From assembly GCA_027450205.1 (NCBI GenBank), contig DAIDJL010000002.1, positions 205,007 to 269,006 on the forward strand: 64,000 nucleotides of DNA, written 5' to 3'. The notes beneath the pieces were generated by a model that made no database searches, was not told the origin of the DNA, and saw only the letters and a program-made list of their open reading frames with translations. Below are positions 2,998 to 46,195 of the stretch, in pieces. A program made the position numbers and the translations under genes. The DNA is from Candidatus Parcubacteria bacterium (GTDB lineage Bacteria; Patescibacteriota; Minisyncoccia; UBA6257; 2-01-FULL-56-20). Numbering within the stretch: position 1 is the first letter of the stretch; every line of letters begins with the position of its first letter.

Positions 2998-3143
2998 CAC
3001 GTGGGCTACTCATCTGAGTAGTTAACATTCCAGGCAGTCTTTGCATTATGCGGAGGCTGCCTGATTTTTTTACCCAACCGCACTACTCACTATTGTTTAA
3101 AAGATATTCTGAGTATCGCCCGTAGGTAAATAGGTTCGACCCG

Positions 3144-3280
3144 CACTAAGGGTGCACGATCCAGCCCGCATGATTGCAGGCCTAAAATTTAGGAGCGGGT
3201 TAGTGGATGACGTCAGAACCTTTTTGATGGAAAAGCCCAGCAAATTTCACATTTCAGATTTAATAAGCGAGAAATGTTGA
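3144..3280 (+). repeat. Conserved intergenic element, family 1 copy C
   Basis: 3188-3280 identical to 338-427. Upstream part cactaagggtgcac...gcaggcctaaaattt aligns to copy A with paired changes. Followed by hairpin 3293-3323. Confidence 0.7.
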
Positions 3281-3856: not shown

Positions 3857-3980
3857 AACATCCTGCTTTCTCTCCGCTCTCCGGAGTTGTTGAAATTGTT
3901 CGGCTGCTCTACAGCGGAACTGCGCACATCATATCATTTGACAATCCATCCGTCAAGAGGTAGAATGTGGGCAGTCGTTC

Positions 3981-8729: not shown

Positions 8730-8801
8730 GGGGCGCGTAGCTCAATGGCAGAGCAGACGTCTTATACACGTCCGGTTCCAGGTTCGAGTCCTGGCGCGCC
8801 C
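8730..8801 (+). tRNA. tRNA with anticodon TAT (Ile-type, AUA decoder)
   Basis: Acceptor GGGCGCG/CGCGCCC, D-arm GCTC-AATGGCA-GAGC, anticodon stem GACGT/ACGTC with loop CTTATAC, T-arm CCAGG-TTCGAGT-CCTGG, discriminator A. Confidence 0.7.
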
Positions 8802-8820
8802 ACAATTTCTCTTTTTAGGT

Positions 8821-13817: not shown

Positions 13818-14159
13818 CTAGTCGTCGTTTTCGCGGTGCTGCACGATCGTTGGGGGAGGAATCGGCGCAGGGGCTGGGGTTGCTGTCGGTGCGGAGGTTG
13901 GCGTAGAGGTTGCCGCTGCCGTGCTTGCCGGCGATGCGCTCTCTTGCGCAGAGACGTTGCCTGTTGTCGTGCTCGTTATGGATTGCGGCGCAGGCGTGAT
14001 CGGCTGGACCCCTGCGGCGTTCCCCCGCAGAAATGCCGCTGCCGCGATAAGGCAGATGAGGAGGGCTGTGTTTACAACAAAGAGATAATTGTCGCTTGAT
14101 GGTCGCTGTGTTGCCACGATATTAAAAACTATATTACGCGAATCCCGGGAAAAAGTCAC
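13818..14159 (-). CDS. small membrane-anchored Pro/Thr/Ala-rich protein
   Basis: TM followed by low-complexity TSTPTSAPTATPAPAP tail; overlaps upstream gene end; weak. Confidence 0.25.
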   Translation of the reverse strand: MTFSRDSRNIVFNIVATQRPSSDNYLFVVNTALLICLIAAAAFLRGNAAGVQPITPAPQSITSTTTGNVSAQESASPASTAAATSTPTSAPTATPAPAPIPPPTIVQHRENDD

Positions 14160-15651
14160 TCTTTATCTTAAAGCGCGAAACCCCCATATCGCGGAGCGTC
14201 GTCTCGAACGCGTCGACCATGGTGTGCGGTCCGGAGATATAAAACGTGCGGTCGCGGTAATCGGGGATCTGTTGCCGGATGAGGTCCGCGCTAACGGGCC
14301 CATTATACGTTCCCGGTACGGGGGTCTTTTCGTTGGTGAGCGCATAAATGGTCTTTATGCCGAGTTCGGTTTCCGCGCGATCAAAAACATCTTTATATGC
14401 GATGTCGCCGGCATTCCTGTTGGAATAGAACATGACGATGGGCCGCCGTTCTTTTTTATCAAGAAGATATTGGACCATGCTGCGGAACGGCGTCACGCCG
14501 ATGCCGCCGGCAATGAACACAAGTTTCTTGCGCGGATCTTTCGGGAGCGTGAATCCTCCTGCGATGTGCGCTGCGGAGATCTTGTCGCCGGCCTTCATTG
14601 CAGCGAGTGCTTGTTTGAATGTGCTGGATTGCGGATAGAATTTTACGCCGAGGTGTACGGAGTCTTCGGTCGGCGAGGAAGCGATGGTGAAATAACGCCG
14701 GTTTCCGCGATTATCCGGATAACGGTGTCCGAGAGTCCATTCCATATATTGCCCCGGCGCGAAAGAAAGCCTTCTGTCGGGTGCGAATATGAAATGGTAG
14801 ACGTCCTTTGCCACTTCTTCTATCTCTACCAGGGTGAGCATGAATCGCCCTTTGGGACTTACCGCATAGGAAAAAATATTACCAAGGAGCAGCGCGAGTT
14901 CGGGGCTGAAGTAGAATGATCCAATATGGACATTGGGTGCGAAGAATAACCCCACCAGTGCGCCGTATGCGATGCGGAGCGCGCGCGTAGGCGGTGTGGT
15001 AAGCGGTTCGGTAAGCATTACGAATGCAAAGAAGAAAAACGATGAACGGAGCAGGGTTTCCATGATCGGCGTCACATATCCGCCCGTCGGGCTTGTCAAT
15101 GCGACTGCTATGAGGGAAACGGCGGCAAAGCTTGCCACAAGGTCGAAACGCTGGACCTTCCGCACGATAAGCAGGCCGCCCACGAGTACGAAGGGCAGGA
15201 GCGGAAGATTTCCGGCGACCCACCATGTCGCCGACTGGCCGATGACGAGGGCCGAAAGCGCCACGCCGAACGCCGCAGGATTAAAAAGATGTTTTTTCCC
15301 GATCGCAAAAAGATATTTTGACGCCATCGCCCACGCCGATGCGAACACGAGGAAGCCGACGCCGGCGCTGTTTCCTGCAGTGACGGGAGTGATGATGAGG
15401 GCCAGGATGAGCGCGGTGATGTAGACTGATTCCACGTTCGTCACCGCATCAAAGATCTTTGCGCATATCCAGTTTGTTGCCCAGGAGACGGCGATGATAA
15501 CGATGGTTGAAAATGCGAGCGCGGTCGGATCGTAGGGAAGTATTCCGAAAAAGCCGAATACGAACGCGATGCCGAGAAGCGCCACAAGGTAATAGAGCAC
15601 GAGGCGGTACATCGTGACCCGATTGAGGAGATTATCTACCAAAGAGATCAT
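14134..15651 (-). CDS. polytopic membrane protein fused to an FNR-like FAD/NAD(P)-binding oxidoreductase domain
   Basis: C-terminal RRYFTIASS (RxYS FAD motif) and GGIGVTP (NAD(P) motif); N-terminal roughly 270 aa multi-TM; 505 aa. Confidence 0.75.
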   Translation of the reverse strand: MISLVDNLLNRVTMYRLVLYYLVALLGIAFVFGFFGILPYDPTALAFSTIVIIAVSWATNWICAKIFDAVTNVESVYITALILALIITPVTAGNSAGVGFLVFASAWAMASKYLFAIGKKHLFNPAAFGVALSALVIGQSATWWVAGNLPLLPFVLVGGLLIVRKVQRFDLVASFAAVSLIAVALTSPTGGYVTPIMETLLRSSFFFFAFVMLTEPLTTPPTRALRIAYGALVGLFFAPNVHIGSFYFSPELALLLGNIFSYAVSPKGRFMLTLVEIEEVAKDVYHFIFAPDRRLSFAPGQYMEWTLGHRYPDNRGNRRYFTIASSPTEDSVHLGVKFYPQSSTFKQALAAMKAGDKISAAHIAGGFTLPKDPRKKLVFIAGGIGVTPFRSMVQYLLDKKERRPIVMFYSNRNAGDIAYKDVFDRAETELGIKTIYALTNEKTPVPGTYNGPVSADLIRQQIPDYRDRTFYISGPHTMVDAFETTLRDMGVSRFKIKSDFFPGFA

Positions 15652-15664
15652 GTGGGTTTATTGA

Positions 15665-16228
15665 TTATGCTTTGGCCTGCGCGAGCGCCGATGCAAGCGA
15701 TTGCTGGAAGGCGATGCTTGTATCGGTCGCGCCGGAAACAATGTTCACGTTCGCGCTTTGCGCCTGGATGGCTTCCTGCTGCAGGTACGGCATTGCCTGT
15801 TGGTTAATATAGACGGATGTGCTGTGGGTGTCCGGATATTGGAGGAATTGCACGCTTGTGAGTCTGCCGTTTTGGATGGTCGCTTGGACCTGAACAAGGC
15901 CGTAATAGGCGTCGGCCGCCGATCCGGTATAGGTTCCGTTAACATACTGCCCTGCGGGTTTCGGGGCGGGAGTTGGAGCCGGAGCAGGCGTAGGCTTTTT
16001 CGCCGATGCGGAGGCTAGTTTTTGCGGCGTGGATTTTACCGCCGTCGGTGTCGGTGTTGGCACCGGGGCGCTCCCACTGCCGGCACTGTCGGCGATAGGC
16101 GAACTGGTTTGCTGTGTCGTTGCGGAAACGGCCGTTGTGGGGGCTATGGGCGCTGCGTTTTGATTGGCAAATAAGACATAAAACGCCGATGCCGCCACAA
16201 GTCCGAATGAAAAAAAAGCCTTCTTCAT
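15665..16228 (-). CDS. secreted FMN-binding-domain protein (paralog of 21752..22180)
   Basis: Signal peptide, PT-rich linker. C-terminal domain GTYTGSA.DA.YG.VQVQATI..G.....F...P.TH...S..INQQAMPYLQQEAI.AQSANVNIVSGATDTS.A. Confidence 0.7.
   Translation of the reverse strand: MKKAFFSFGLVAASAFYVLFANQNAAPIAPTTAVSATTQQTSSPIADSAGSGSAPVPTPTPTAVKSTPQKLASASAKKPTPAPAPTPAPKPAGQYVNGTYTGSAADAYYGLVQVQATIQNGRLTSVQFLQYPDTHSTSVYINQQAMPYLQQEAIQAQSANVNIVSGATDTSIAFQQSLASALAQAKA
15680..15850. repeat. about 170-bp near-identical segment shared (inverted) with 22020-22190
   Basis: Revcomp of 15713-15800 matches 22027-22115 base for base; two or three mismatches in the adjacent 50 nt. Confidence 0.85.
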
Positions 16229-16320
16229 GGTTCTTATCCACTAATACGCGACGCGGGGGCATTTTAGTGCGCCCTATGAATTATTTTTCCAGCGCGTGGC
16301 GTATTATATAGGATATTACC

Positions 16321-16923
16321 ATGAGCTCGAGTATTATTACGATGATGGCAGTCGATGATGGCGAGAGAGCGGAAAATTCCAATGCTTCCGGCGCGACCGA
16401 CGAAACCCTTGTTTCGCTCGCGCTCATTGATGACCGCTATTTTGAAGTGCTCGTCGAACGGTATGAGCGGAAGCTGCAGCATTATATCATGCGATTCATC
16501 AACTGCAGCGAGCAGGATGCACAGGACATCATCCAGGATGTTTTCATCAATGCGTACCGGAACCTGAACGGGTTTGACACCGGTCTGAAGTTTTCGTCGT
16601 GGATATACCGGATCGCGCATAACCAGGCGGTGAATCATCTGCGGCGCATCGCTGCACGGCCGACGGTGATCATGGACGACGAAGCGTTCGACGCGCTCGC
16701 GTCGGAGTTAAACGTTGAGCACGATGTCGGAAAAAACATGGAACATGCGGCGCTCCGCGCCGCGATCGGGCGGCTCGATGAAAAATATCGGGAAGTGATC
16801 GTGCTCCGTTATTTGGAGGGTAAGAGCTATGATGAGATATCGGATATTTTGCGAAAGCCGCGAGGAAGCGTCTCGTCGCTCATTACGCGCGCAAAAAAAC
16901 TTTTAAGAACATCGTTGCCGTAG
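16321..16923 (+). CDS. ECF-type RNA polymerase sigma factor (sigma-70 regions 2 and 4)
   Basis: Region 2 DIIQDVFINAYRNL...SWIYRIAHNQAVNHLRR; region 4 HTH at C-terminus; divergent from the FMN-binding operon. Confidence 0.8.
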   Translation: MSSSIITMMAVDDGERAENSNASGATDETLVSLALIDDRYFEVLVERYERKLQHYIMRFINCSEQDAQDIIQDVFINAYRNLNGFDTGLKFSSWIYRIAHNQAVNHLRRIAARPTVIMDDEAFDALASELNVEHDVGKNMEHAALRAAIGRLDEKYREVIVLRYLEGKSYDEISDILRKPRGSVSSLITRAKKLLRTSLP

Positions 16924-16933
16924 CGAAAATCCA

Positions 16934-17353
16934 ATGTCCGAAACCAGCAAGAAAATAATAGAGACGATCCATGAGCGGCACATCACGCACCGCCCGAAAT
17001 GGTATTTCTTCATTAGAAACGCTTTCGTGTGGGCCGCGCTCGTCGGATCGGTGTTCCTGGGCGCTCTCTCCTTCAGTATCGAAGAAACGGTGATAGAGAA
17101 GGGCATCGGCCTAAGCTGGTTCCCCGGTATCCCGTTGCTCTGGGTCGCATGCACGGCGCTCTTTGTGGTGCTCGCGTTCCTTAACCTGCGCCTTACCAAA
17201 GAAGGGTATCGGTATCGGGCGGTATGGATCATCCTCGGCCTTTTGCTCGTTGTCGCCACATTCGCACTGCTCTTTGGGCGGGAAGGCATCGGCGAACGGG
17301 CGGAATCGGTGATGGAACGTGCTTCGTTCTATCATGTTGCAGGAGAGCAATAA
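16934..17353 (+). CDS. membrane protein, putative anti-sigma partner
   Basis: Immediately downstream of the ECF sigma gene; 3-4 TM helices; 139 aa. Confidence 0.4.
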   Translation: MSETSKKIIETIHERHITHRPKWYFFIRNAFVWAALVGSVFLGALSFSIEETVIEKGIGLSWFPGIPLLWVACTALFVVLAFLNLRLTKEGYRYRAVWIILGLLLVVATFALLFGREGIGERAESVMERASFYHVAGEQ

Positions 17354-17506
17354 GAGCTTCGCCATATCACGGATCACGCATTAATTCCCCGGCACCCCGC
17401 GTAATAATAAATACAGAGATATGAACGCCGGTCACTCTGGCGTAATAATAGCCTCTTTTTAAACATCCGCTGCGCTTCCGGTGCGGACGGGGGTCATCTT
17501 AAAAAA

Positions 17507-18667
17507 TTGCTTACAGAAAAAATAAAGGATAACGGCCGCAGGCGGTCGTTTTGGAAAAAATGGCTATCTCTGGGTATTGGCGGCGCGATGCTTTTGTTGG
17601 TCGTTGCCGTGCTTTTTATCAAGCTTGATACTGCCGCCGCGGCGAATTTCACCGACCAAGTGCTGCGCCCCGTGATCGGAGACAGCCAGGTGATCTCTCT
17701 GGAGGGGCTGTTCTTCAATATTTCCGACAAGGTCAACCAGATCACATATCGGTTTATAAAGCCCGCGAATTCGTTCATTTTGAACGGCAGCGTGGCTATT
17801 TCGGCTTCCGATACTGCTGCGCAGTCGTCTGCATTGAACTTGTCGCCCCTGTCGGTTGCGACCGCCAGCATCTCGGCTGGAGAAGGAATATGGCGAAATA
17901 TTCCCCTAAGCTTGTTCCCGAACAATATCGTTCTTGCGGATACGTTCATTACTCCGGACCCCGCACGTCCGTATGCTTTTGTGACATTGGCACAGATGGA
18001 TATGTCCCGGCTGCGGCTTTGGAGTGTGGCAGGAACGCAGGAACCGGGTGGCAAGGTGGGAAAACCGGGGCCAGGCGTTATTCCCCGTAATGTCCAAGCC
18101 CAGGGTACGCTCGTCGCGGCGTTTGATGGGGGGTTCCAATATCGCGACGGGCAATATGGTATGGTGGTGGGGAACACTACATACCTGCCTCTTAAGAAAG
18201 ATCTGGCGACGCTCGTCGGGTATAATGATGGCCGGCTGGCCATCATAAAATACGAGGGGCAGGATCTGGGTGGTGGCGTCGCGTTCGTTCGTCAAAATTG
18301 TCCGATGCTTATCGAGAATGGGATCATTGAAACGCAGAACGAGGCAAATAGGAAGCTTTGGGGGCGGACGATAACCTCAAGCATCTATACGTGGCGGTCG
18401 GGGATCGGGATCACTGCAAAAGGAAATTTGATCTTTGCGGTAGGCAATTCGCTGGTTCCGTCAACGCTCGCCGCGGCGCTCGCTTCAGCCGGGGCGGTGG
18501 ATGCCATGCAGCTTGATATCAATCCATATTGGGTGCGATTCAACACGTTTAATAACTATGCCAATGGCGCGTATGCGCACGCAACAATAATGAACGGGGT
18601 CTTTGACGGATCGTATAATTATCTCCATGGATATCAAAAAGATTTTTTTTATATCACAAAAAAATAA
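17507..18667 (+). CDS. secreted protein, phosphodiester-glycosidase-like (DUF2233/NAGPA-like) C-terminal domain
   Basis: N-terminal signal anchor; C-terminal AAFDGGF...AMQLD pattern resembles phosphodiester glycosidase family; 386 aa. Confidence 0.45.
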   Translation: MLTEKIKDNGRRRSFWKKWLSLGIGGAMLLLVVAVLFIKLDTAAAANFTDQVLRPVIGDSQVISLEGLFFNISDKVNQITYRFIKPANSFILNGSVAISASDTAAQSSALNLSPLSVATASISAGEGIWRNIPLSLFPNNIVLADTFITPDPARPYAFVTLAQMDMSRLRLWSVAGTQEPGGKVGKPGPGVIPRNVQAQGTLVAAFDGGFQYRDGQYGMVVGNTTYLPLKKDLATLVGYNDGRLAIIKYEGQDLGGGVAFVRQNCPMLIENGIIETQNEANRKLWGRTITSSIYTWRSGIGITAKGNLIFAVGNSLVPSTLAAALASAGAVDAMQLDINPYWVRFNTFNNYANGAYAHATIMNGVFDGSYNYLHGYQKDFFYITKK

Positions 18668-19154
18668 CGGGGCAGAAGAGGAGATCCATGGGATATTCGA
18701 TGCCACGCTGTTGTTAAAAGGGGCTGGTGCGTTCGCCGAGCTGATCGGCGGGATGTTGCTCTATTTTATAAGCTCCGAGAACATATCCCGCATGGCAAAT
18801 TTCTTTCTGGGGGGAGAGCTCGTTGAGGATCCGCACGATCTTCTCGCCAATTATTTATTGCATGTTGCCCAGACGTTCGGCGGGGGTTCAAAGCTATTTG
18901 CGGCGCTTTATCTCGTGGGCCACGGGATCGTGAATGGATTGGTGGTGTTGGGATTATGGAAAGAGAAAATCTGGGCCTACCCGATATCGTTCGCCGTGAT
19001 CGGAGCGTTCGTCGTTTATCAGATTTATTCACTTATGTTCGGCTATTCATTATGGCTTGTGGTCCTGACGGTGCTCGATCTTATCGTGTTGCTCCTTGCC
19101 TGGCATGAGTACAAGATCTTAAAAAAGAGAAAAAGATTTATGACTTCCCACTGA
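18603..19154 (+). CDS. DUF2127-family membrane protein (paralog of 43624..44100)
   Basis: Shares ELxGG.LL......xxxxxxF..GEL.EDP.DLLAN.LLH..Q......F.A.YL..HG.....V..L...K.WAYP motif block with 43624..44100. Confidence 0.55.
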   Translation: MTDRIIISMDIKKIFFISQKNNGAEEEIHGIFDATLLLKGAGAFAELIGGMLLYFISSENISRMANFFLGGELVEDPHDLLANYLLHVAQTFGGGSKLFAALYLVGHGIVNGLVVLGLWKEKIWAYPISFAVIGAFVVYQIYSLMFGYSLWLVVLTVLDLIVLLLAWHEYKILKKRKRFMTSH

Positions 19155-19189
19155 AAAAAAAGGGGGGGGCGGAAACGAACCCGCCTACC

Positions 19190-20569
19190 CTACTTTGCTT
19201 TCCAAATTCGCTCCGCGAGGTGGAGTTTCTCCGGGAGACGGTTGATGTAGGGTAGAAACGGGAAGAGGACGAGAAGGAGTGCGAGCAGTCCCAGGATCTC
19301 GGCGCCGTCCCGATCTCCGTTGGTGTCATTTGCAAGGATGGTTTTGTCCAACAACCCTAACGGGGCAAGCCACCAGGCTCCCGGAGGGATGGATCGACCC
19401 TCTTCGTACATCATGCCCCACTGGTCGGTGGTGATATGGAGGCCGCTTGCTTCCGTATCCAATACTCCGGTGTCGGCAAGGAATCGCAGAGAATAGGCCG
19501 GATCCGAACCGGGGTTTTCATTGTTTAGCGCCGCTTGATAGAGACCGCTCTTCGCCATCACAACAAGGGAAGAAATGACGGAGGTCAACGTGTTTTGCGT
19601 GCCACCGCTCTGAAAATATATTTCCGCCTGGGCGACATCTTGGTCTTGAACCGCCGCTGGTTCCGCGGAAAAAATAGCGAGCTCATCCGTTCCTCCCGTG
19701 GCTTCAATAAAGCTTTTATACGGCACCGTGATATATATGGTGCGCGTATCGTAAGCATACGGATCGATGGAGTCCAGATAGGTTGCGGTATCCGATGTAT
19801 GGCTGAATTCACCGAGAAGGGTTTGTGCCATTAGCCCGGGATCCTGGCGCGCGATTTCCCCGATGGTGGTTTGTTCTACGAGCGGCGAGGGGAAAACGAC
19901 GGCGAGAAGGAGGATGAGCGCGACGAGTACGCCGCCACGGATAAAAAGACGGATATGGTTTGCGGGTACTGTCGGGACGGAGACGTCTTCGCGATAGGGC
20001 TTTGCGATGCCGCGTATTTTTACGAGAAGATAGTGGAGCGCAAGAAGTCCCAGGATGACGACGGGAATGATGATGACGTGGATCCCGAATACCTGCGCCC
20101 CGTTCAGCGTGTTTATAAACCTTCCAAGATATGACCCGTTATAGAAATCGGCTCCCTGCAGCGCCCGGTACTGCGAGGAAAAATCCCCGCGCAGGTCATA
20201 TCCGAATTCCGCCTCTAGGGCAATAAGGAGGAACGCGAGCGCGCCGAGCATCCACGTAAGACGCCGCGGCGTTTTGAACCCGCTGCTTAGAAACACGACG
20301 AGGCCGTGAAGTATGATGATAAGGATCAACGCCTGCGCCGCCCAAAGATGGATGCTCCGGAAAAAGATGCCGATAGGGTTTGCGATCCACCATGCCGATC
20401 CGAGAAAGACCATCACCAAGCCGGTGACGGCAAGGAGTGCGAGGCAGGTGAGCCCTAAAAATCCAAGCGAATAGAATATGCTGTTGCCGTACTGCGGCAC
20501 CTCCATGATGAAGAACTTCTCTTTGATGGCATCTACTATATTGCGGGGAGAGGTGTCGGTGTCGGGCAT
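19190..20569 (-). CDS. cytochrome b/b6-like membrane protein
   Basis: N-terminal domain pattern FRSIHLWAAQ...ILHGLVVFLSSGFKTPRRLTWMLG...FGYDL with paired His in TM helices; 459 aa. Confidence 0.6.
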   Translation of the reverse strand: MPDTDTSPRNIVDAIKEKFFIMEVPQYGNSIFYSLGFLGLTCLALLAVTGLVMVFLGSAWWIANPIGIFFRSIHLWAAQALILIIILHGLVVFLSSGFKTPRRLTWMLGALAFLLIALEAEFGYDLRGDFSSQYRALQGADFYNGSYLGRFINTLNGAQVFGIHVIIIPVVILGLLALHYLLVKIRGIAKPYREDVSVPTVPANHIRLFIRGGVLVALILLLAVVFPSPLVEQTTIGEIARQDPGLMAQTLLGEFSHTSDTATYLDSIDPYAYDTRTIYITVPYKSFIEATGGTDELAIFSAEPAAVQDQDVAQAEIYFQSGGTQNTLTSVISSLVVMAKSGLYQAALNNENPGSDPAYSLRFLADTGVLDTEASGLHITTDQWGMMYEEGRSIPPGAWWLAPLGLLDKTILANDTNGDRDGAEILGLLALLLVLFPFLPYINRLPEKLHLAERIWKAK

Positions 20570-20580
20570 GAAAATATAGA

Positions 20581-20784
20581 TCAGTTCCTTCCCCAGCGAA
20601 CGGCGACCCAGGCGCGTTCGTGGATATAGTAGGTGAGCACTTTAATAGTGAAATCGAGAACGCCTATGCCCAACGAAAGCCCCCACTTCCTCGTGAACGC
20701 AAAAATAAGAAATGCAGTGATGAACGTTCCGATGATCCTCCAGCTTACCGCCTTGGCGATGCTCCGCCGGTGTTTATCGTCCAT
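20581..20784 (-). CDS. small membrane protein (DUF2061-like)
   Basis: 67 aa, two TM helices, KAVSWRIIGT pattern. Confidence 0.4.
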   Translation of the reverse strand: MDDKHRRSIAKAVSWRIIGTFITAFLIFAFTRKWGLSLGIGVLDFTIKVLTYYIHERAWVAVRWGRN

Positions 20785-20937
20785 GGGCTGTTATATATTT
20801 AAATTGTCCGGCGTGGATACCATAATCATACCAATAAAACCTCGCTATTCAAGTATGATAAGCTGCCTGCCCGCGCCTTGACACGGGAATGGCAAAACCC
20901 GATAGTTACGGTGGTATTCTTACCATAAGGAGAAGGA

Positions 20938-21561
20938 ATGAACTATCTGCAGAAGATCGAAGATGCGAAGCGATTGATCGAGCAGGCAATCAGAGATTAT
21001 CCGAATATCTGCCTTGGGTGCTCCTTCGGCAAGGATTCAATGGTGACGCTTGACCTGGTTTGGTTCGTGAAACCGGACATTCCAGTCTTTGCGATCATGG
21101 CGAATACGGAATTTCCTGAGACGTATGCGTTTGCAGAGCGCATGGTGAAGAAATATCACCTGAACTACACCGATTATCGATTTATCCAGGACGGTGGAAA
21201 GTGCTGCGGGCGCCCAAAAGTCGAAAAGACCAAAGAAGCTTTACGCAGATATGATGCGTGGATCTCGGGCGTACGTTCAACGGAGGGCATCACGCGGTCC
21301 GATTTTGAGCCAGTGGAAGAAAAGGGCGGCTTGATGAAGTTCAACCCGATCCTCGGATTCACCGAGCTCGACGTCTGGCGGTATCTTGCCCTCAACCAGA
21401 TCCCGATCAACCCGATGTATCAATTGGGATATCGCAGCCTGGGGTGCAGTTTATGTTCCTTCCCCGAGGAAGACGAGGCTGAGACCGAACGCGCCGGCCG
21501 CTGGAAGGGTACGGAAAACGCTTGCGGTGAATGCGGCATTCATACCCAACCTCTCCGGTAG
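20938..21561 (+). CDS. phosphoadenosine-phosphosulfate reductase family protein (CysH-like)
   Basis: PP-loop-like CSFGKDS, C-terminal Cys cluster CC....C..C and CGECG; 207 aa; hairpin terminator follows. Confidence 0.7.
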   Translation: MNYLQKIEDAKRLIEQAIRDYPNICLGCSFGKDSMVTLDLVWFVKPDIPVFAIMANTEFPETYAFAERMVKKYHLNYTDYRFIQDGGKCCGRPKVEKTKEALRRYDAWISGVRSTEGITRSDFEPVEEKGGLMKFNPILGFTELDVWRYLALNQIPINPMYQLGYRSLGCSLCSFPEEDEAETERAGRWKGTENACGECGIHTQPLR

Positions 21562-21586
21562 TAATAGAAGAGCGAAGCAGACAGCG

Positions 21587-21620
21587 GGGCGGATGAGACA
21601 TCATCCGCCCCCTTATTATT
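21587..21620 (+). terminator. rho-independent terminator-like hairpin
   Basis: ggggcggatga-gacatc-atccgcccc followed by a T-rich run. Confidence 0.5.
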
Positions 21621-21751
21621 CTATTTAAGGGTGTAAATCGGGGGCTAATTTAGGTGGTTAAGCGGGAGGGGGCCGAATCGCGAGACTGTTTCGTCGACAC
21701 GGATCCGTTGGGGTTTCCCGCTGCATAAAAAAGCTGTCGGCATGCGTATTA

Positions 21752-22180
21752 ATGGGAAAGAGCAATAATACCATGAAAAAATACATCATCGGTTTTGCGG
21801 CGGTCGTCGTTATGGGAGGGTTCTATCTGCTTTATGAAAATCAGCACGCGATTTCCGCGCCCAAAACCCAACCGGTCAACAAAAGTTCGTCGGTTGTTTA
21901 CAAAAACGGGACGTATACGGGAAGCGCCGTAGACGCGTTTTATGGGAACGTCCAGGTGCAGGCGACCATCCATGGGGGCAACATCACTAATGTGGCGTTT
22001 TTACAGTATCCGAATACCCACAGCGCATCCGTCTATATTAACCAACAGGCAATGCCGTACCTGCAGCAGGAAGCCATCCAGGCGCAAAGCGCGAACGTGA
22101 ACATTGTTTCCGGCGCGACCGATACGAGCATCGCCTTCCAGCAATCGCTTGCATCGGCGCTTACCAAGGCGCAGGGTTGA
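21752..22180 (+). CDS. secreted FMN-binding-domain protein (paralog of 15665..16228)
   Basis: Signal anchor plus the same FMN-binding domain; C-terminal about 55 codons almost identical at DNA level to the paralog. Confidence 0.7.
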   Translation: MGKSNNTMKKYIIGFAAVVVMGGFYLLYENQHAISAPKTQPVNKSSSVVYKNGTYTGSAVDAFYGNVQVQATIHGGNITNVAFLQYPNTHSASVYINQQAMPYLQQEAIQAQSANVNIVSGATDTSIAFQQSLASALTKAQG

Positions 22181-22286
22181 TCGATCCCCCCCCGAGGGGC
22201 ACAAGCTTTAAACGTGGGGCCGGCAGTAGGATGATGGGGCGGGGGGGGGGTGGCAAACCCCAAGTGCAAAGATGTATAATGGGACT

Positions 22287-22811: not shown

Positions 22812-23495
22812 ATGAGTGAATTTCCGCAATCTACCCCACGGAATAGCGGCGCTTCTCTCGTTGTGCCCGTTCCGCCGGAATCAGCCAATGTTGATCAGCG
22901 AGAGCGGTCAAGGTGCGTGAATAAAAATTGTCTTTTGGTGCAATATCGCACGGATCGCGGCATGTGCAAAAAGTGTGGTATGGCATTGCCCGCTCCGAAA
23001 AAAGCTTCAAATTCGGGCAAGCCATGCATTCTTCTGGAAAACATGCTTACCCGGAAAGAGATGGTCATTGGCGAACTGCTTGCGAAGGGGGATGATATCA
23101 CAAGCATCGCAGAAAAACTCCGCACTTCGCGACAGACTGTCAAAAACTGCTTAAATGTCATTTATAAGAAACTTTGCATAACCAGGGGGTCGAAGTGGGT
23201 CATTTTCGCATGCAAGGTTTTTGCAGAAACTATGGAGCGGGAAGCGGAGGAGATTCGCGCGAGCGGATATCCGTGCGGCCGGAGGCTTCCGGAGATACTG
23301 ACAAAAAGAGAGATGGTCATCGTTCGGTGTATCGCGGGGGGAATGGCCAATAAGGATATTGCCCACGAAATGAACATTTCGGAGCAAGTGGTGAAAAACT
23401 ACATATGTGCGATCACCAGGAAGCTTGGCTTTTCTGACCGCCTGGAAGTTGCGCTCAGGTTCCATTACGAAGAATTTTACGCAAGCCGGGGATAG
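22812..23495 (+). CDS. regulator with N-terminal zinc-ribbon-like Cys cluster and two tandem LuxR/GerE-type HTH domains
   Basis: Two copies of the LT.(K/R)E..(I/V)......G.....IA..L..S..TVKN....I..KL HTH pattern; CVNKNC...CKKCG near the N-terminus. Confidence 0.65.
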   Translation: MSEFPQSTPRNSGASLVVPVPPESANVDQRERSRCVNKNCLLVQYRTDRGMCKKCGMALPAPKKASNSGKPCILLENMLTRKEMVIGELLAKGDDITSIAEKLRTSRQTVKNCLNVIYKKLCITRGSKWVIFACKVFAETMEREAEEIRASGYPCGRRLPEILTKREMVIVRCIAGGMANKDIAHEMNISEQVVKNYICAITRKLGFSDRLEVALRFHYEEFYASRG

Positions 23496-24632: not shown

Positions 24633-24730
24633 TGCAATACGTGCGATATTTTATTTGCCGACCTTTCCCCTGCTTAGTAAGGAACGGAACAGCATTAAAA
24701 AATGTTACGTAGGGATAGGAGCTTGTTTTT

Positions 24731-24768
24731 GGGTGCCTGGGTGGAGGAAGTCAGAACCTGTTTGGGGG
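24731..24768 (+). repeat. Conserved intergenic element, family 2 copy D (GGGTGCCTGGGTGGAGGAAGTCAGAACCTGTTTG)
   Basis: Shares gggtgcctgggtg.agga.gtcagaacctgtttg with copies at 25794 and 27431. Confidence 0.65.
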
Positions 24769-24786
24769 CAAAGGGTTGAAAGTTTT

Positions 24787-25793: not shown

Positions 25794-25840
25794 TGGGTGC
25801 CTGGGTGAAGGATGTCAGAACCTGTTTGATCGGATTATAA
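25794..25840 (+). repeat. Conserved intergenic element, family 2 copy E
   Basis: gggtgcctgggtgaaggatgtcagaacctgtttgatcggattataaa; intergenic. Confidence 0.65.
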
Positions 25841-25891
25841 AAATGCGGCTTGCCCCTTTCGAAGCAAGCCGTTGATACATGCAGAGGAGTT

Positions 25892-27414: not shown

Positions 27415-27476
27415 TAGGAAGTCAGAACTTGGGTGCCTGGGTGAAGGATGTCAGAATCTGTTTGATGAGATTATAA
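27415..27476 (+). repeat. Conserved intergenic element, family 2 copy F with partial internal duplication
   Basis: ggaagtcagaac (27417-27428) immediately precedes the full unit gggtgcctgggtgaaggatgtcagaatctgtttgatgagattataaa. Confidence 0.65.
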
Positions 27477-27743
27477 AAAAAAGCGGCCCGGATCGCTTAA
27501 TGCAACCCGAGCCATGGCCGCTCTTGGTCAGTAAATGTATTCACTGCGGTTAAGAGTGTTTTATCGCATATTCGTGTTATGGGTGGGCTAGTGGGGAAAA
27601 TTGGAAATTATCTTACCTCTTCGTCTCAATCCCTTTTTCTTACAGTCCAATCCATAACAATTGAGGCGTATACATCTCTAGGGACATTATTAATGCGAGG
27701 AGCTATTACAGGATTGATGGTTCGGGAGTCATTAACAACGTCA

Positions 27744-43627: not shown

Positions 43628-44100
43628 AAGAAAGGACATGGCGCGACCTGTTTGACCTCGGCGTCGTCATTAAGGGGATCGATGGGACATTGGAGCTCGT
43701 GGGCGGAGTCGCCCTCTTTCTTGTTTCACCCACAACCATCAACACCATCGCCCTTTTCTTCATACGCGGAGAATTGAGCGAGGATCCAAAGGATCTTCTC
43801 GCGAACCTGTTCCTTCACGCGACCCAGAGCGTCATTCAGATGCAGGCCTTCGCGAGTATCCTCCTTATCGTCCATGGCGCGGTGAAGCTGTTCCTTGTCG
43901 CCGCACTGCTGCGCAACAAGCTCTGGGCGTACCCCGCATCCATTGCCGTCTTTGGCGGATTCGTGTTTTACCAGCTTTATCAACTGAGCATCGCCAATTC
44001 ACTCTTCCTTTGGGTCGTGACGATCGTCGATATTTTGGTCATCGGTCTTATTGCGCACGAATATCGGTATGTGCGGCGGCACGGTATACTAAAACAATGA
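43624..44100 (+). CDS. DUF2127-family membrane protein (paralog of 18603..19154)
   Basis: ATGA overlap with PAP2 stop; shared motif block with 18603..19154. Confidence 0.55.
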   Translation: MKERTWRDLFDLGVVIKGIDGTLELVGGVALFLVSPTTINTIALFFIRGELSEDPKDLLANLFLHATQSVIQMQAFASILLIVHGAVKLFLVAALLRNKLWAYPASIAVFGGFVFYQLYQLSIANSLFLWVVTIVDILVIGLIAHEYRYVRRHGILKQ

Positions 44101-45903: not shown

Positions 45904-46195
45904 GCAGGCGCTACACTTAACCCATAACTGAATATGATGGGGCGCAAGCCTCGGAGCCTAAACCTTCACCGGCATGGCTCATAAGACTCAAACCAGAATA
46001 CTGAACCCCGCGTTCAGCAACTCTGGTTTGAGCCGTACTGGGAAACTGGTACGGGACCGAAAGGTCTAGCTGACACGGGGTTCAGTGTTATTTCTTTCCG
46101 TGTCGGCTATCAAAGGCCGGCATTTTTGTTTATCAATTCGTGATCAAAATCAATCACAGAAAGAAAATTAAGGAGGATAGAAAATAACCAATACT

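Follow-up and report, generated by a model that had tools for sequence, protein, structure and literature searches.

The 'NQR/RNF-like system', found mainly in Actinobacteria and in the Candidate Phyla Radiation (CPR), was defined by Meheust et al. 2021 (eLife, PMC8238504). The DNA described here, a stretch of 64,000 nucleotides (nt) from a Candidatus Parcubacteria bacterium (contig DAIDJL010000002.1) that is referred to as the window, carries two paralogous genes belonging to this known, though little studied, flavin electron-transfer module. Both encode proteins with a flavin mononucleotide (FMN)-binding domain of the FMN_bind family. Gene A (15665..16228) is located on the minus strand, directly upstream of a reductase gene on the same strand, while gene B (21752..22180) is located on the plus strand. 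A near-identical inverted stretch connects the 3' parts of the two genes. This stretch is very probably a recent gene-conversion tract, i.e., the outcome of non-reciprocal homologous recombination between the diverged paralogs A and B.

The nearest known analogue is the RecA-dependent conversion between tufA and tufB, which are duplicate genes in inverse orientation (PMC5485169). As in this gene pair of Salmonella and E. coli, A and B are paralogs that lie on one chromosome in inverse orientation, the tracts are contiguous and probably non-reciprocal with ends inside the coding sequence, homogenisation is recurrent, and inversions are possible in principle. The two tuf genes, which lie 762 kb apart, show about 99% identity along their full length, whereas A and B are about 65-70% identical outside one tract and lie 6 kb apart. 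Unlike the tuf genes, A and B have been homogenised in some lineages only and over part of the gene, and for them we infer both a role of RecA and a dependence on RecA-type homologous recombination. Work by Abdulkarim and Hughes in 1996 and by Hughes in 2000 reportedly linked tuf conversion to chromosomal inversions. The tract between A and B is a further example of a well-known type of bacterial recombination and does not overturn current understanding.

The region between 14 and 24 kb contains one long inverted repeat, with arms at 15660-15940 and 21905-22185 (281 nt, 82% complementary), and this is the sole long inverted repeat in the whole window. The arms are the 3' parts of genes A and B and represent the whole homologous FMN_bind domain region, with the final 282 nt of both genes forming a gapless codon-for-codon alignment. 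Within this alignment, domain positions 117-262 form the conversion tract of 146 nt, located at 15684..15829 on the minus strand in gene A and at 22016..22161 on the plus strand in gene B. The two copies are 98.6% identical, differing only at A 15820/B 22025 and at A 15719/B 22126, and they share an exact core of 100 nt (A 15720-15819, B 22026-22125). The A copy encodes THSTSVYINQQAMPYLQQEAIQAQSANVNIVSGATDTSIAFQQSLASA, which includes the SGAT motif. The near-identity is contiguous, and the homologous sequence that flanks it at either end is clearly more diverged: the 117 nt upstream of the tract are 64% identical, and 10 of the final 19 nt before the stop codon differ (approximately 50% identity). 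The N-terminal halves of the two genes cannot be aligned at all. When the 54 mismatches were randomly placed 100,000 times, neither 100 exact nt nor 146 nt with two mismatches was ever obtained (p < 1e-5).

An earlier note on this DNA had reported a near-identical inverted duplication of about 170 bp. The duplication is real, while its extent is about 146 nt for the tract, or 281 nt if the whole diverged arm is included. The same note placed about 90 identical nt in the last 55 or so codons; here too the identity is real, although the exact run amounts to 100 nt, and the tract covers codons -54 to -7 and ends 19 nt before the stop codon. Its statement that the remainder of both genes has diverged agrees with the values for the flanks and the N-terminal halves given above. 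Divergence along the paralogs is non-uniform, as is evident from the exact run, the flanks of the tract and the permutation.

The comparison with relatives is based on eight paired lineages (the window, L001, L004, L084, L086/L090, L088, L095, and L174), for which the domains of A and B were placed in one gapless codon alignment of 282 nt. Over the tract codons, the window pair differs by two synonymous codons and one nonsynonymous codon. In the unconverted pairs, synonymous and nonsynonymous differences over the same codons number 29 and 7 in L001, 23 and 8 in L088, 17 and 9 in L084, and 17 and 7 in L095. The longest exact runs between A and B are 11, 12, 15, and 17 nt in these four pairs, compared with 100 nt in the window. 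L174 is a further unconverted pair, showing 75.5% identity between A and B over the domain and no recent tract. The amino acid sequence of the tract is conserved everywhere, while the nucleotide identity is specific to the window genome.

Neighbour-joining trees and distance matrices were calculated separately for the segment upstream of the tract (domain nt 0-117) and for the tract itself (nt 117-263), and the two trees are discordant. In the upstream tree, the window copy of B falls in the B clade, with L001_B as its nearest neighbour at a distance of 0.21, and the window copy of A falls in the A clade. In the tract tree, the two window copies are sisters at a distance of 0.01. Both lie nearer to the A clade, at 0.20-0.21, with the B clade at 0.27, and all orthologues differ from the window tract, by 16-31%. 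The proposal of recent gene conversion between inverted paralogs made in the earlier note is thus borne out by the synonymous sites, the tree discordance, the lengths of the exact runs, and the independent tracts in two other lineages.

Recent conversion events are found in three of the eight paired lineages, namely the window, L004, and L086/L090, each of which is a separate lineage. In L004 (GCA_027449645.1), A and B share 97% identity across the full 282-nt domain, with the identity ceasing 9 nt before the stop codon. In L086/L090 the two genes are 100% identical over 271 nt; L088, L095, and L174, the closest relatives of this lineage, are unconverted. Patches of 83-90% identity between A and B in L084 and L174 may be older, decaying tracts. 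The independent, longer tracts in other lineages indicate that the A/B pair evolves partly in concert. The case is clean and well controlled, and it illustrates partial concerted evolution in the CPR (Patescibacteria), whose genomes have few paralogs and whose recombination biology is accessible only through sequence. It means that homologous recombination acts on repeats of approximately 100-300 nt in these organisms, and that the A/B locus should be flagged as a site of possible assembly breaks or mis-joins.

Gene A is probably the donor and gene B the recipient, since the tract is nearer to the A clade and the diagnostic residue Tyr46 shows the A state in both window copies. An A-to-B bias shows in 3 of 3 cases here (p = 0.125). 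In the proposed course of events, a break or gap would arise in the 3' half of the FMN_bind domain of gene B. Its repair would be templated on gene A in a RecA-type, homology-directed manner, and about 146 nt would be copied, including the codons of the SGAT flavinylation motif. The two differences between A and B in the tract would since have arisen or would have survived the event. Recombination between A and B would be favoured by the strong conservation of the protein sequence in this part of the domain. Several points weigh against this account. At the mismatch at 22126 gene B keeps the B-clade base, and just three nucleotide sites in the tract are diagnostic, which tells against the direction from A to B. 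The tract is documented by the sequence of one contig. Moreover, the exact runs of just 11-17 nt in the unconverted pairs are short for efficient RecA-type initiation, so that the event would have begun from a more similar state after earlier conversions, or at low efficiency. An approximate E. coli RecA query gave no match to recA in the 64-kb window, a result that is uninformative for the rest of the genome.

Near-identity of this kind could also result from purifying selection on the conserved SGAT region of FMN_bind, or from an embedded nucleotide-level element, without any recombination. The tract does encode the most conserved part of the protein, and many of the 44 alignment columns that are invariant across 16 homologues lie within it. 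The codons of L001, L084, L088, L095, and L174 encode a near-identical protein, yet with 17-29 synonymous differences and exact runs of at most 17 nt, whereas the synonymous sites of the window pair are nearly all identical. Protein constraint does not explain the tract and is rejected on this comparison. Conservation of the nucleotide sequence as such is likewise at odds with the 16-31% by which the window tract differs from all orthologues. An RNA element was considered as well and rejected, as an Rfam scan of the whole window returned no family match at 13-24 kb. Altogether, an origin by constraint is extremely improbable. Slightly less remote, although still highly unlikely, is an assembly or polishing artefact, in which reads of one copy built or corrected the other copy, or the repeat collapsed. 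The window does stem from a metagenome-assembled contig. However, copies with about 70% identity cannot be collapsed or made identical by De Bruijn assembly, the tract still contains two mismatches, and similar tracts occur in independent assemblies of other organisms. In addition, each copy has kept a 3' tail specific to its paralog (AQAKA and TKAQG) as well as the flanks predicted by synteny with six relatives. The 3' half of gene B might finally have been replaced by DNA of another organism instead of its own gene A. Transformation and recombination can produce mosaic genes, a general consideration that is not specific to this locus. Such a donor would have to match the resident gene A at 98.6% in the tract, while the closest orthologue found differs by 16% and the closest full-length relative of the gene B protein is 83% identical. 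The chance of such a horizontal replacement is next to negligible. Conversion between the resident genes A and B is the explanation retained in the following.

The inverted arrangement raises the question of inversion. The earlier note suggested that the repeat could drive inversion of the intervening segment, which is plausible. If a reciprocal crossover took place in the tract, a segment of about 6.2 kb would be inverted, with both genes staying intact and in frame. This would swap the 5' half (anchor and linker) that is joined to the reductase operon, and would flip the genes at 17507-21561 together with the neighbouring sigma and anti-sigma genes. In the window, the exchange brought about by a crossover in the tract would be confined to the final six codons and the context downstream of them. 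Swapped flanks are found in one organism, represented by the loci L086, L087, and L172 as well as L090 and L091. Here the reductase gene comes after a gene with a B-type 5' half, and the 240 nt upstream of the latter are orthologous to the B-upstream region and the 5' end of B in L096, L095, and L088. The gene with the A-type 5' half has its usual divergent arrangement with the sigma gene but is followed by the gene that is found 3' of B in L094 and L096. L172 (Logan) is a third contig with an identical junction, apparently from one read set with L086. These flanks are exactly the product expected from a crossover between the inverted arms and suggest an inversion, the alternative being a mis-join by the assembler. 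The contigs of this organism are short and all cross the perfect 271-nt repeat, and two samples contribute, with the run SRR8554485 and its sister run (JGI 3300031671 and 3300031672). Graph assemblers working with short reads cannot resolve a perfect repeat of 271 nt without read-pair information. In a model of random mis-joins, two recombinant junctions would be obtained with a probability of about 0.25. Scans of genome and metagenome contigs yielded no longer contig of this organism. The seven other paired lineages (the window, L001, L004, L084, L088, L095, and L174) all show the standard orientation, and in each of them one contig extends across A and B.

Described inversion switches, such as those of the Hin/Gin/Cin invertases, the shufflons, and the Bacteroides invertons, share with this locus inverted repeats that bracket a segment, as well as an inversion that would re-pair the 5' and 3' parts of genes. 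In contrast to the short recombinase sites of such site-specific systems, the repeats of A and B are diverged homologous coding sequence, there is no adjacent recombinase gene, and seven of the eight lineages have the same fixed orientation. It is very unlikely that the 6.2-kb segment acts as a recombinational switch, flipping appreciably and swapping the 5' halves with long and short linkers, with the near-identity maintained for this function. In favour of a switch, the inverted arms share the reading frame and would yield two intact recombinant genes, the L086/L090 organism combines swapped flanks with a perfect 271-nt repeat, and the sigma gene is divergent from the FMN_bind and reductase genes in some CPR lineages and co-directional in others. 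These observations are outweighed by several others. A Pfam scan of all open reading frames (ORFs) at 13.2-23.5 kb detected no recombinase or invertase; the ORFs comprise the reductase, the two FMN_bind proteins, the sigma factor, the membrane protein, NAGPA, DUF2127, cytochrome b, DUF2061, PAPS_reduct, a deoxyribosyltransferase-like protein, a LuxR-type protein, and one protein without a family, and are thus of unrelated or no family. One orientation is shared by the other seven paired lineages, and the arms of five of the eight pairs are too diverged to recombine efficiently. Both promoters are of the same type, so inversion would change little. The swapped flanks themselves come from contigs of two samples that cross the perfect repeat, with the chance of mis-joining stated above. 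A related idea, which is unlikely but less so, regards the in-frame inverted repeats as a natural recombination cassette, in which crossovers repeatedly invert the sigma/anti-sigma segment in this Paceibacterota clade, as suggested by the L086/L090 contigs. If this were true, the reductase operon would switch between an FMN-binding partner with a long tether and one with a short tether, the linkage of the sigma operon would alternate between divergent and co-directional, and episodic conversion would keep the cassette recombinable.

The gene products involved in the conversion are membrane-anchored extracytosolic FMN-binding proteins and represent old paralogs that have otherwise diverged. Both proteins are presumed to act in electron transfer. 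Gene A encodes 187 amino acids with an N-terminal hydrophobic anchor and a long linker rich in Pro, Thr, and Ala, and its orthologues of approximately 180-200 amino acids occupy the equivalent position in L001, L004, L084, L088, L095, and L174. Gene B was called as a protein of 142 amino acids with a short linker. For both, the match to PF04205 scores 30.5 bits (cut-off 22). The called start of gene B, ATG 21752 (MGKSNNTMKKY...), is probably 21 nt too early. The true start is probably ATG 21773, which yields 135 amino acids beginning with MKKYIIG, as all orthologues start with MKKY and a promoter-like motif ends at 21751. B-type orthologues (P0002-P0010) have lengths of 133-135 amino acids. 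The flavinylation motif [S/T]GA[S/T] is present as an invariant SGAT in 16 of 16 aligned homologues (S120, G121, A122, and T123 in the numbering of B), and the threonines predicted to be flavinylated are T168 in the SGAT motif of the A protein and T123 in the B protein. The gene B protein (P0001) was found on one NCBI contig of 314 kb. The nearest proteins are annotated as Candidatus Paceibacterota, a CPR/Patescibacteria lineage, and gene B is an extra copy confined to a subclade of the Paceibacterota.

Gene A forms one operon with the reductase gene (14134..15651, minus strand). The reductase comprises 505 amino acids, with an NqrB/RnfD-like membrane domain fused to binding domains for flavin adenine dinucleotide and nicotinamide adenine dinucleotide. 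The Pfam scores are 37.5 bits for PF03116 (NQR2_RnfD_RnfE, cut-off 27.7), 23.5 for PF00970 (FAD_binding_6), and 56.5 for PF00175 (NAD_binding_1). Divergent from gene A lies the gene of an ECF (extracytoplasmic function)-type sigma factor (16321..16923, plus strand), which is assigned through the Pfam domains Sigma70_r2 and Sigma70_r4_2 and is a conserved neighbour in related loci. A match of 19 out of 21 nt between 16380-16400, in the coding region of the sigma N-terminus (..NASGATDE..), and 22102-22122 (as well as 15723-15743) was considered as a third copy or fragment and rejected. It is probably a codon coincidence, as the homologous sigma region in L090 reads ..ARADTDE... Immediately 3' of the sigma gene, a small membrane protein is encoded (16934..17353, plus strand). 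It has no significant Pfam family match, is kept after the sigma gene in related loci, and is presumed from its position to be an anti-sigma factor.

The segment between the presumed anti-sigma gene and gene B contains genes assigned by Pfam to the NAGPA family (17507-18667, plus strand), DUF2127 (18603-19154, plus strand), a cytochrome b-like family (19190-20569, minus strand), DUF2061 (20581-20784, minus strand), and the PAPS-reductase family PAPS_reduct (20938-21561, plus strand). As listed, the NAGPA-family and DUF2127 ORFs overlap by 65 nt (18603-18667), and translation of DUF2127 probably begins further downstream. Another gene of this family is located at about 43630-44079. Located 3' of the PAPS_reduct gene is a strong hairpin resembling an intrinsic terminator (21586..21611, plus strand), with an 11-bp stem, 8 G-C pairs, and a T-rich tail. 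Its position before gene B indicates that gene B is isolated as its own transcription unit. Scans for sigma-70 promoters and terminators performed at chance level overall, and this hairpin alone was used. About 630 nt 3' of gene B, past a deoxyribosyltransferase-like gene, a protein of 227 amino acids with two LuxR/GerE-type helix-turn-helix regions is encoded (22812-23495, plus strand).

In relatives, the common layout consists of the reductase and A genes transcribed in one direction, followed in the divergent direction by the sigma gene, the presumed anti-sigma gene, variable genes, and B. This layout was seen in L001 (with identical gene order in L002, L003, L005, and L092), L004 (together with L006, which is on the same NCBI contig), L084, L088, L095, and L174. 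Relatives differ in the distance from the presumed anti-sigma gene to B, which is about 50 nt in L001 and about 3.4 kb in L084, where DUF2127 and cytochrome b lie in between. An FMN_bind gene followed by a reductase gene is near-universal among the approximately 170 CPR loci fetched, and in 119 CPR loci ApbE is encoded between the two. ApbE (PF02424) was not found in the window or in loci of the subclade, using tblastn in 14 loci and a CPR-ApbE profile hidden Markov model at E<=10 in 11. The negative set comprises the whole window and L001, L004, L084, L088, L095, L086, L035, L071, L100, and L103. In this sigma-linked Paceibacterota subclade, ApbE may have been lost from the operon or may be encoded elsewhere in the genome.

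Judging from the available excerpts of PMC8238504, the window resembles the NQR/RNF-like system in that PF03116 and PF00175 are combined in one protein, encoded next to the FMN_bind gene A. It differs in that the cluster of this Paceibacterota subclade has no ApbE gene, a feature that those excerpts do not describe. The same portions of Meheust et al. 2021 (PMC8238504) contain no description of two FMN_bind paralogs in divergent units, or of a pair of ECF sigma and presumed anti-sigma factors with a shared promoter motif.

This shared motif is ECF-promoter-like and is present upstream of both FMN_bind genes, as GCACTAAA-N14-CGTATTA upstream of gene A (16242..16270, minus strand) and as GCATAAAA-N14-CGTATTA upstream of gene B (21723..21751, plus strand). 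The fixed-length consensus is GCAY[GTA][AG]AA-N14-CGTAnTA, for which the forms GCACGAAA-N14-CGTAnTA and GCAC(G/T)AAA-N14-CGTAnTA are also used. It was matched 36 times in the 1.84 Mb of fetched loci and not once in shuffled sequence, and 34 of the 36 matches lie directly upstream of FMN_bind genes. The other two are in L172, with the same junction as in L086, and at a contig edge in L108 where the B gene is expected. Further loci with the motif are L001, L004, L084, L088, L095, L086, L090, L093, L094, L096, L089, L035, L098, L100, L121, and L145. We take its 'GAAA ... CGTA' architecture to resemble that of ECF sigma promoters. Gene A with the reductase gene, and gene B, are probably controlled by the adjacent ECF sigma factor. 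The ECF sigma factor, the presumed anti-sigma factor, and the promoter motif before both FMN-binding genes together form a conserved putative regulatory unit, which suggests that an envelope signal switches the module on.

Elsewhere in the window, a tRNA-Ile gene with the anticodon TAT (UAU) is located at 8731-8803 on the plus strand. Two pairs of direct repeats occur near the start of the window, one of 152 nt with 88% identity (276-427 and 3129-3280) and one of 49 nt with promoter-like sequence (TTGACA...TAGAAT; 959-1007 and 3924-3972). A third family of direct repeats is an element of approximately 50 nt, TGGGTGCCTGGGTGAAGGATGTCAGAACCTGTTTGAT, present in three copies at 24730-24779, 25794-25843, and 27430-27479. 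In addition, the Rfam scan detected a LOOT RNA match at 45955-46067 on the plus strand, scoring 70.7 bits against a gathering score of 46.4.

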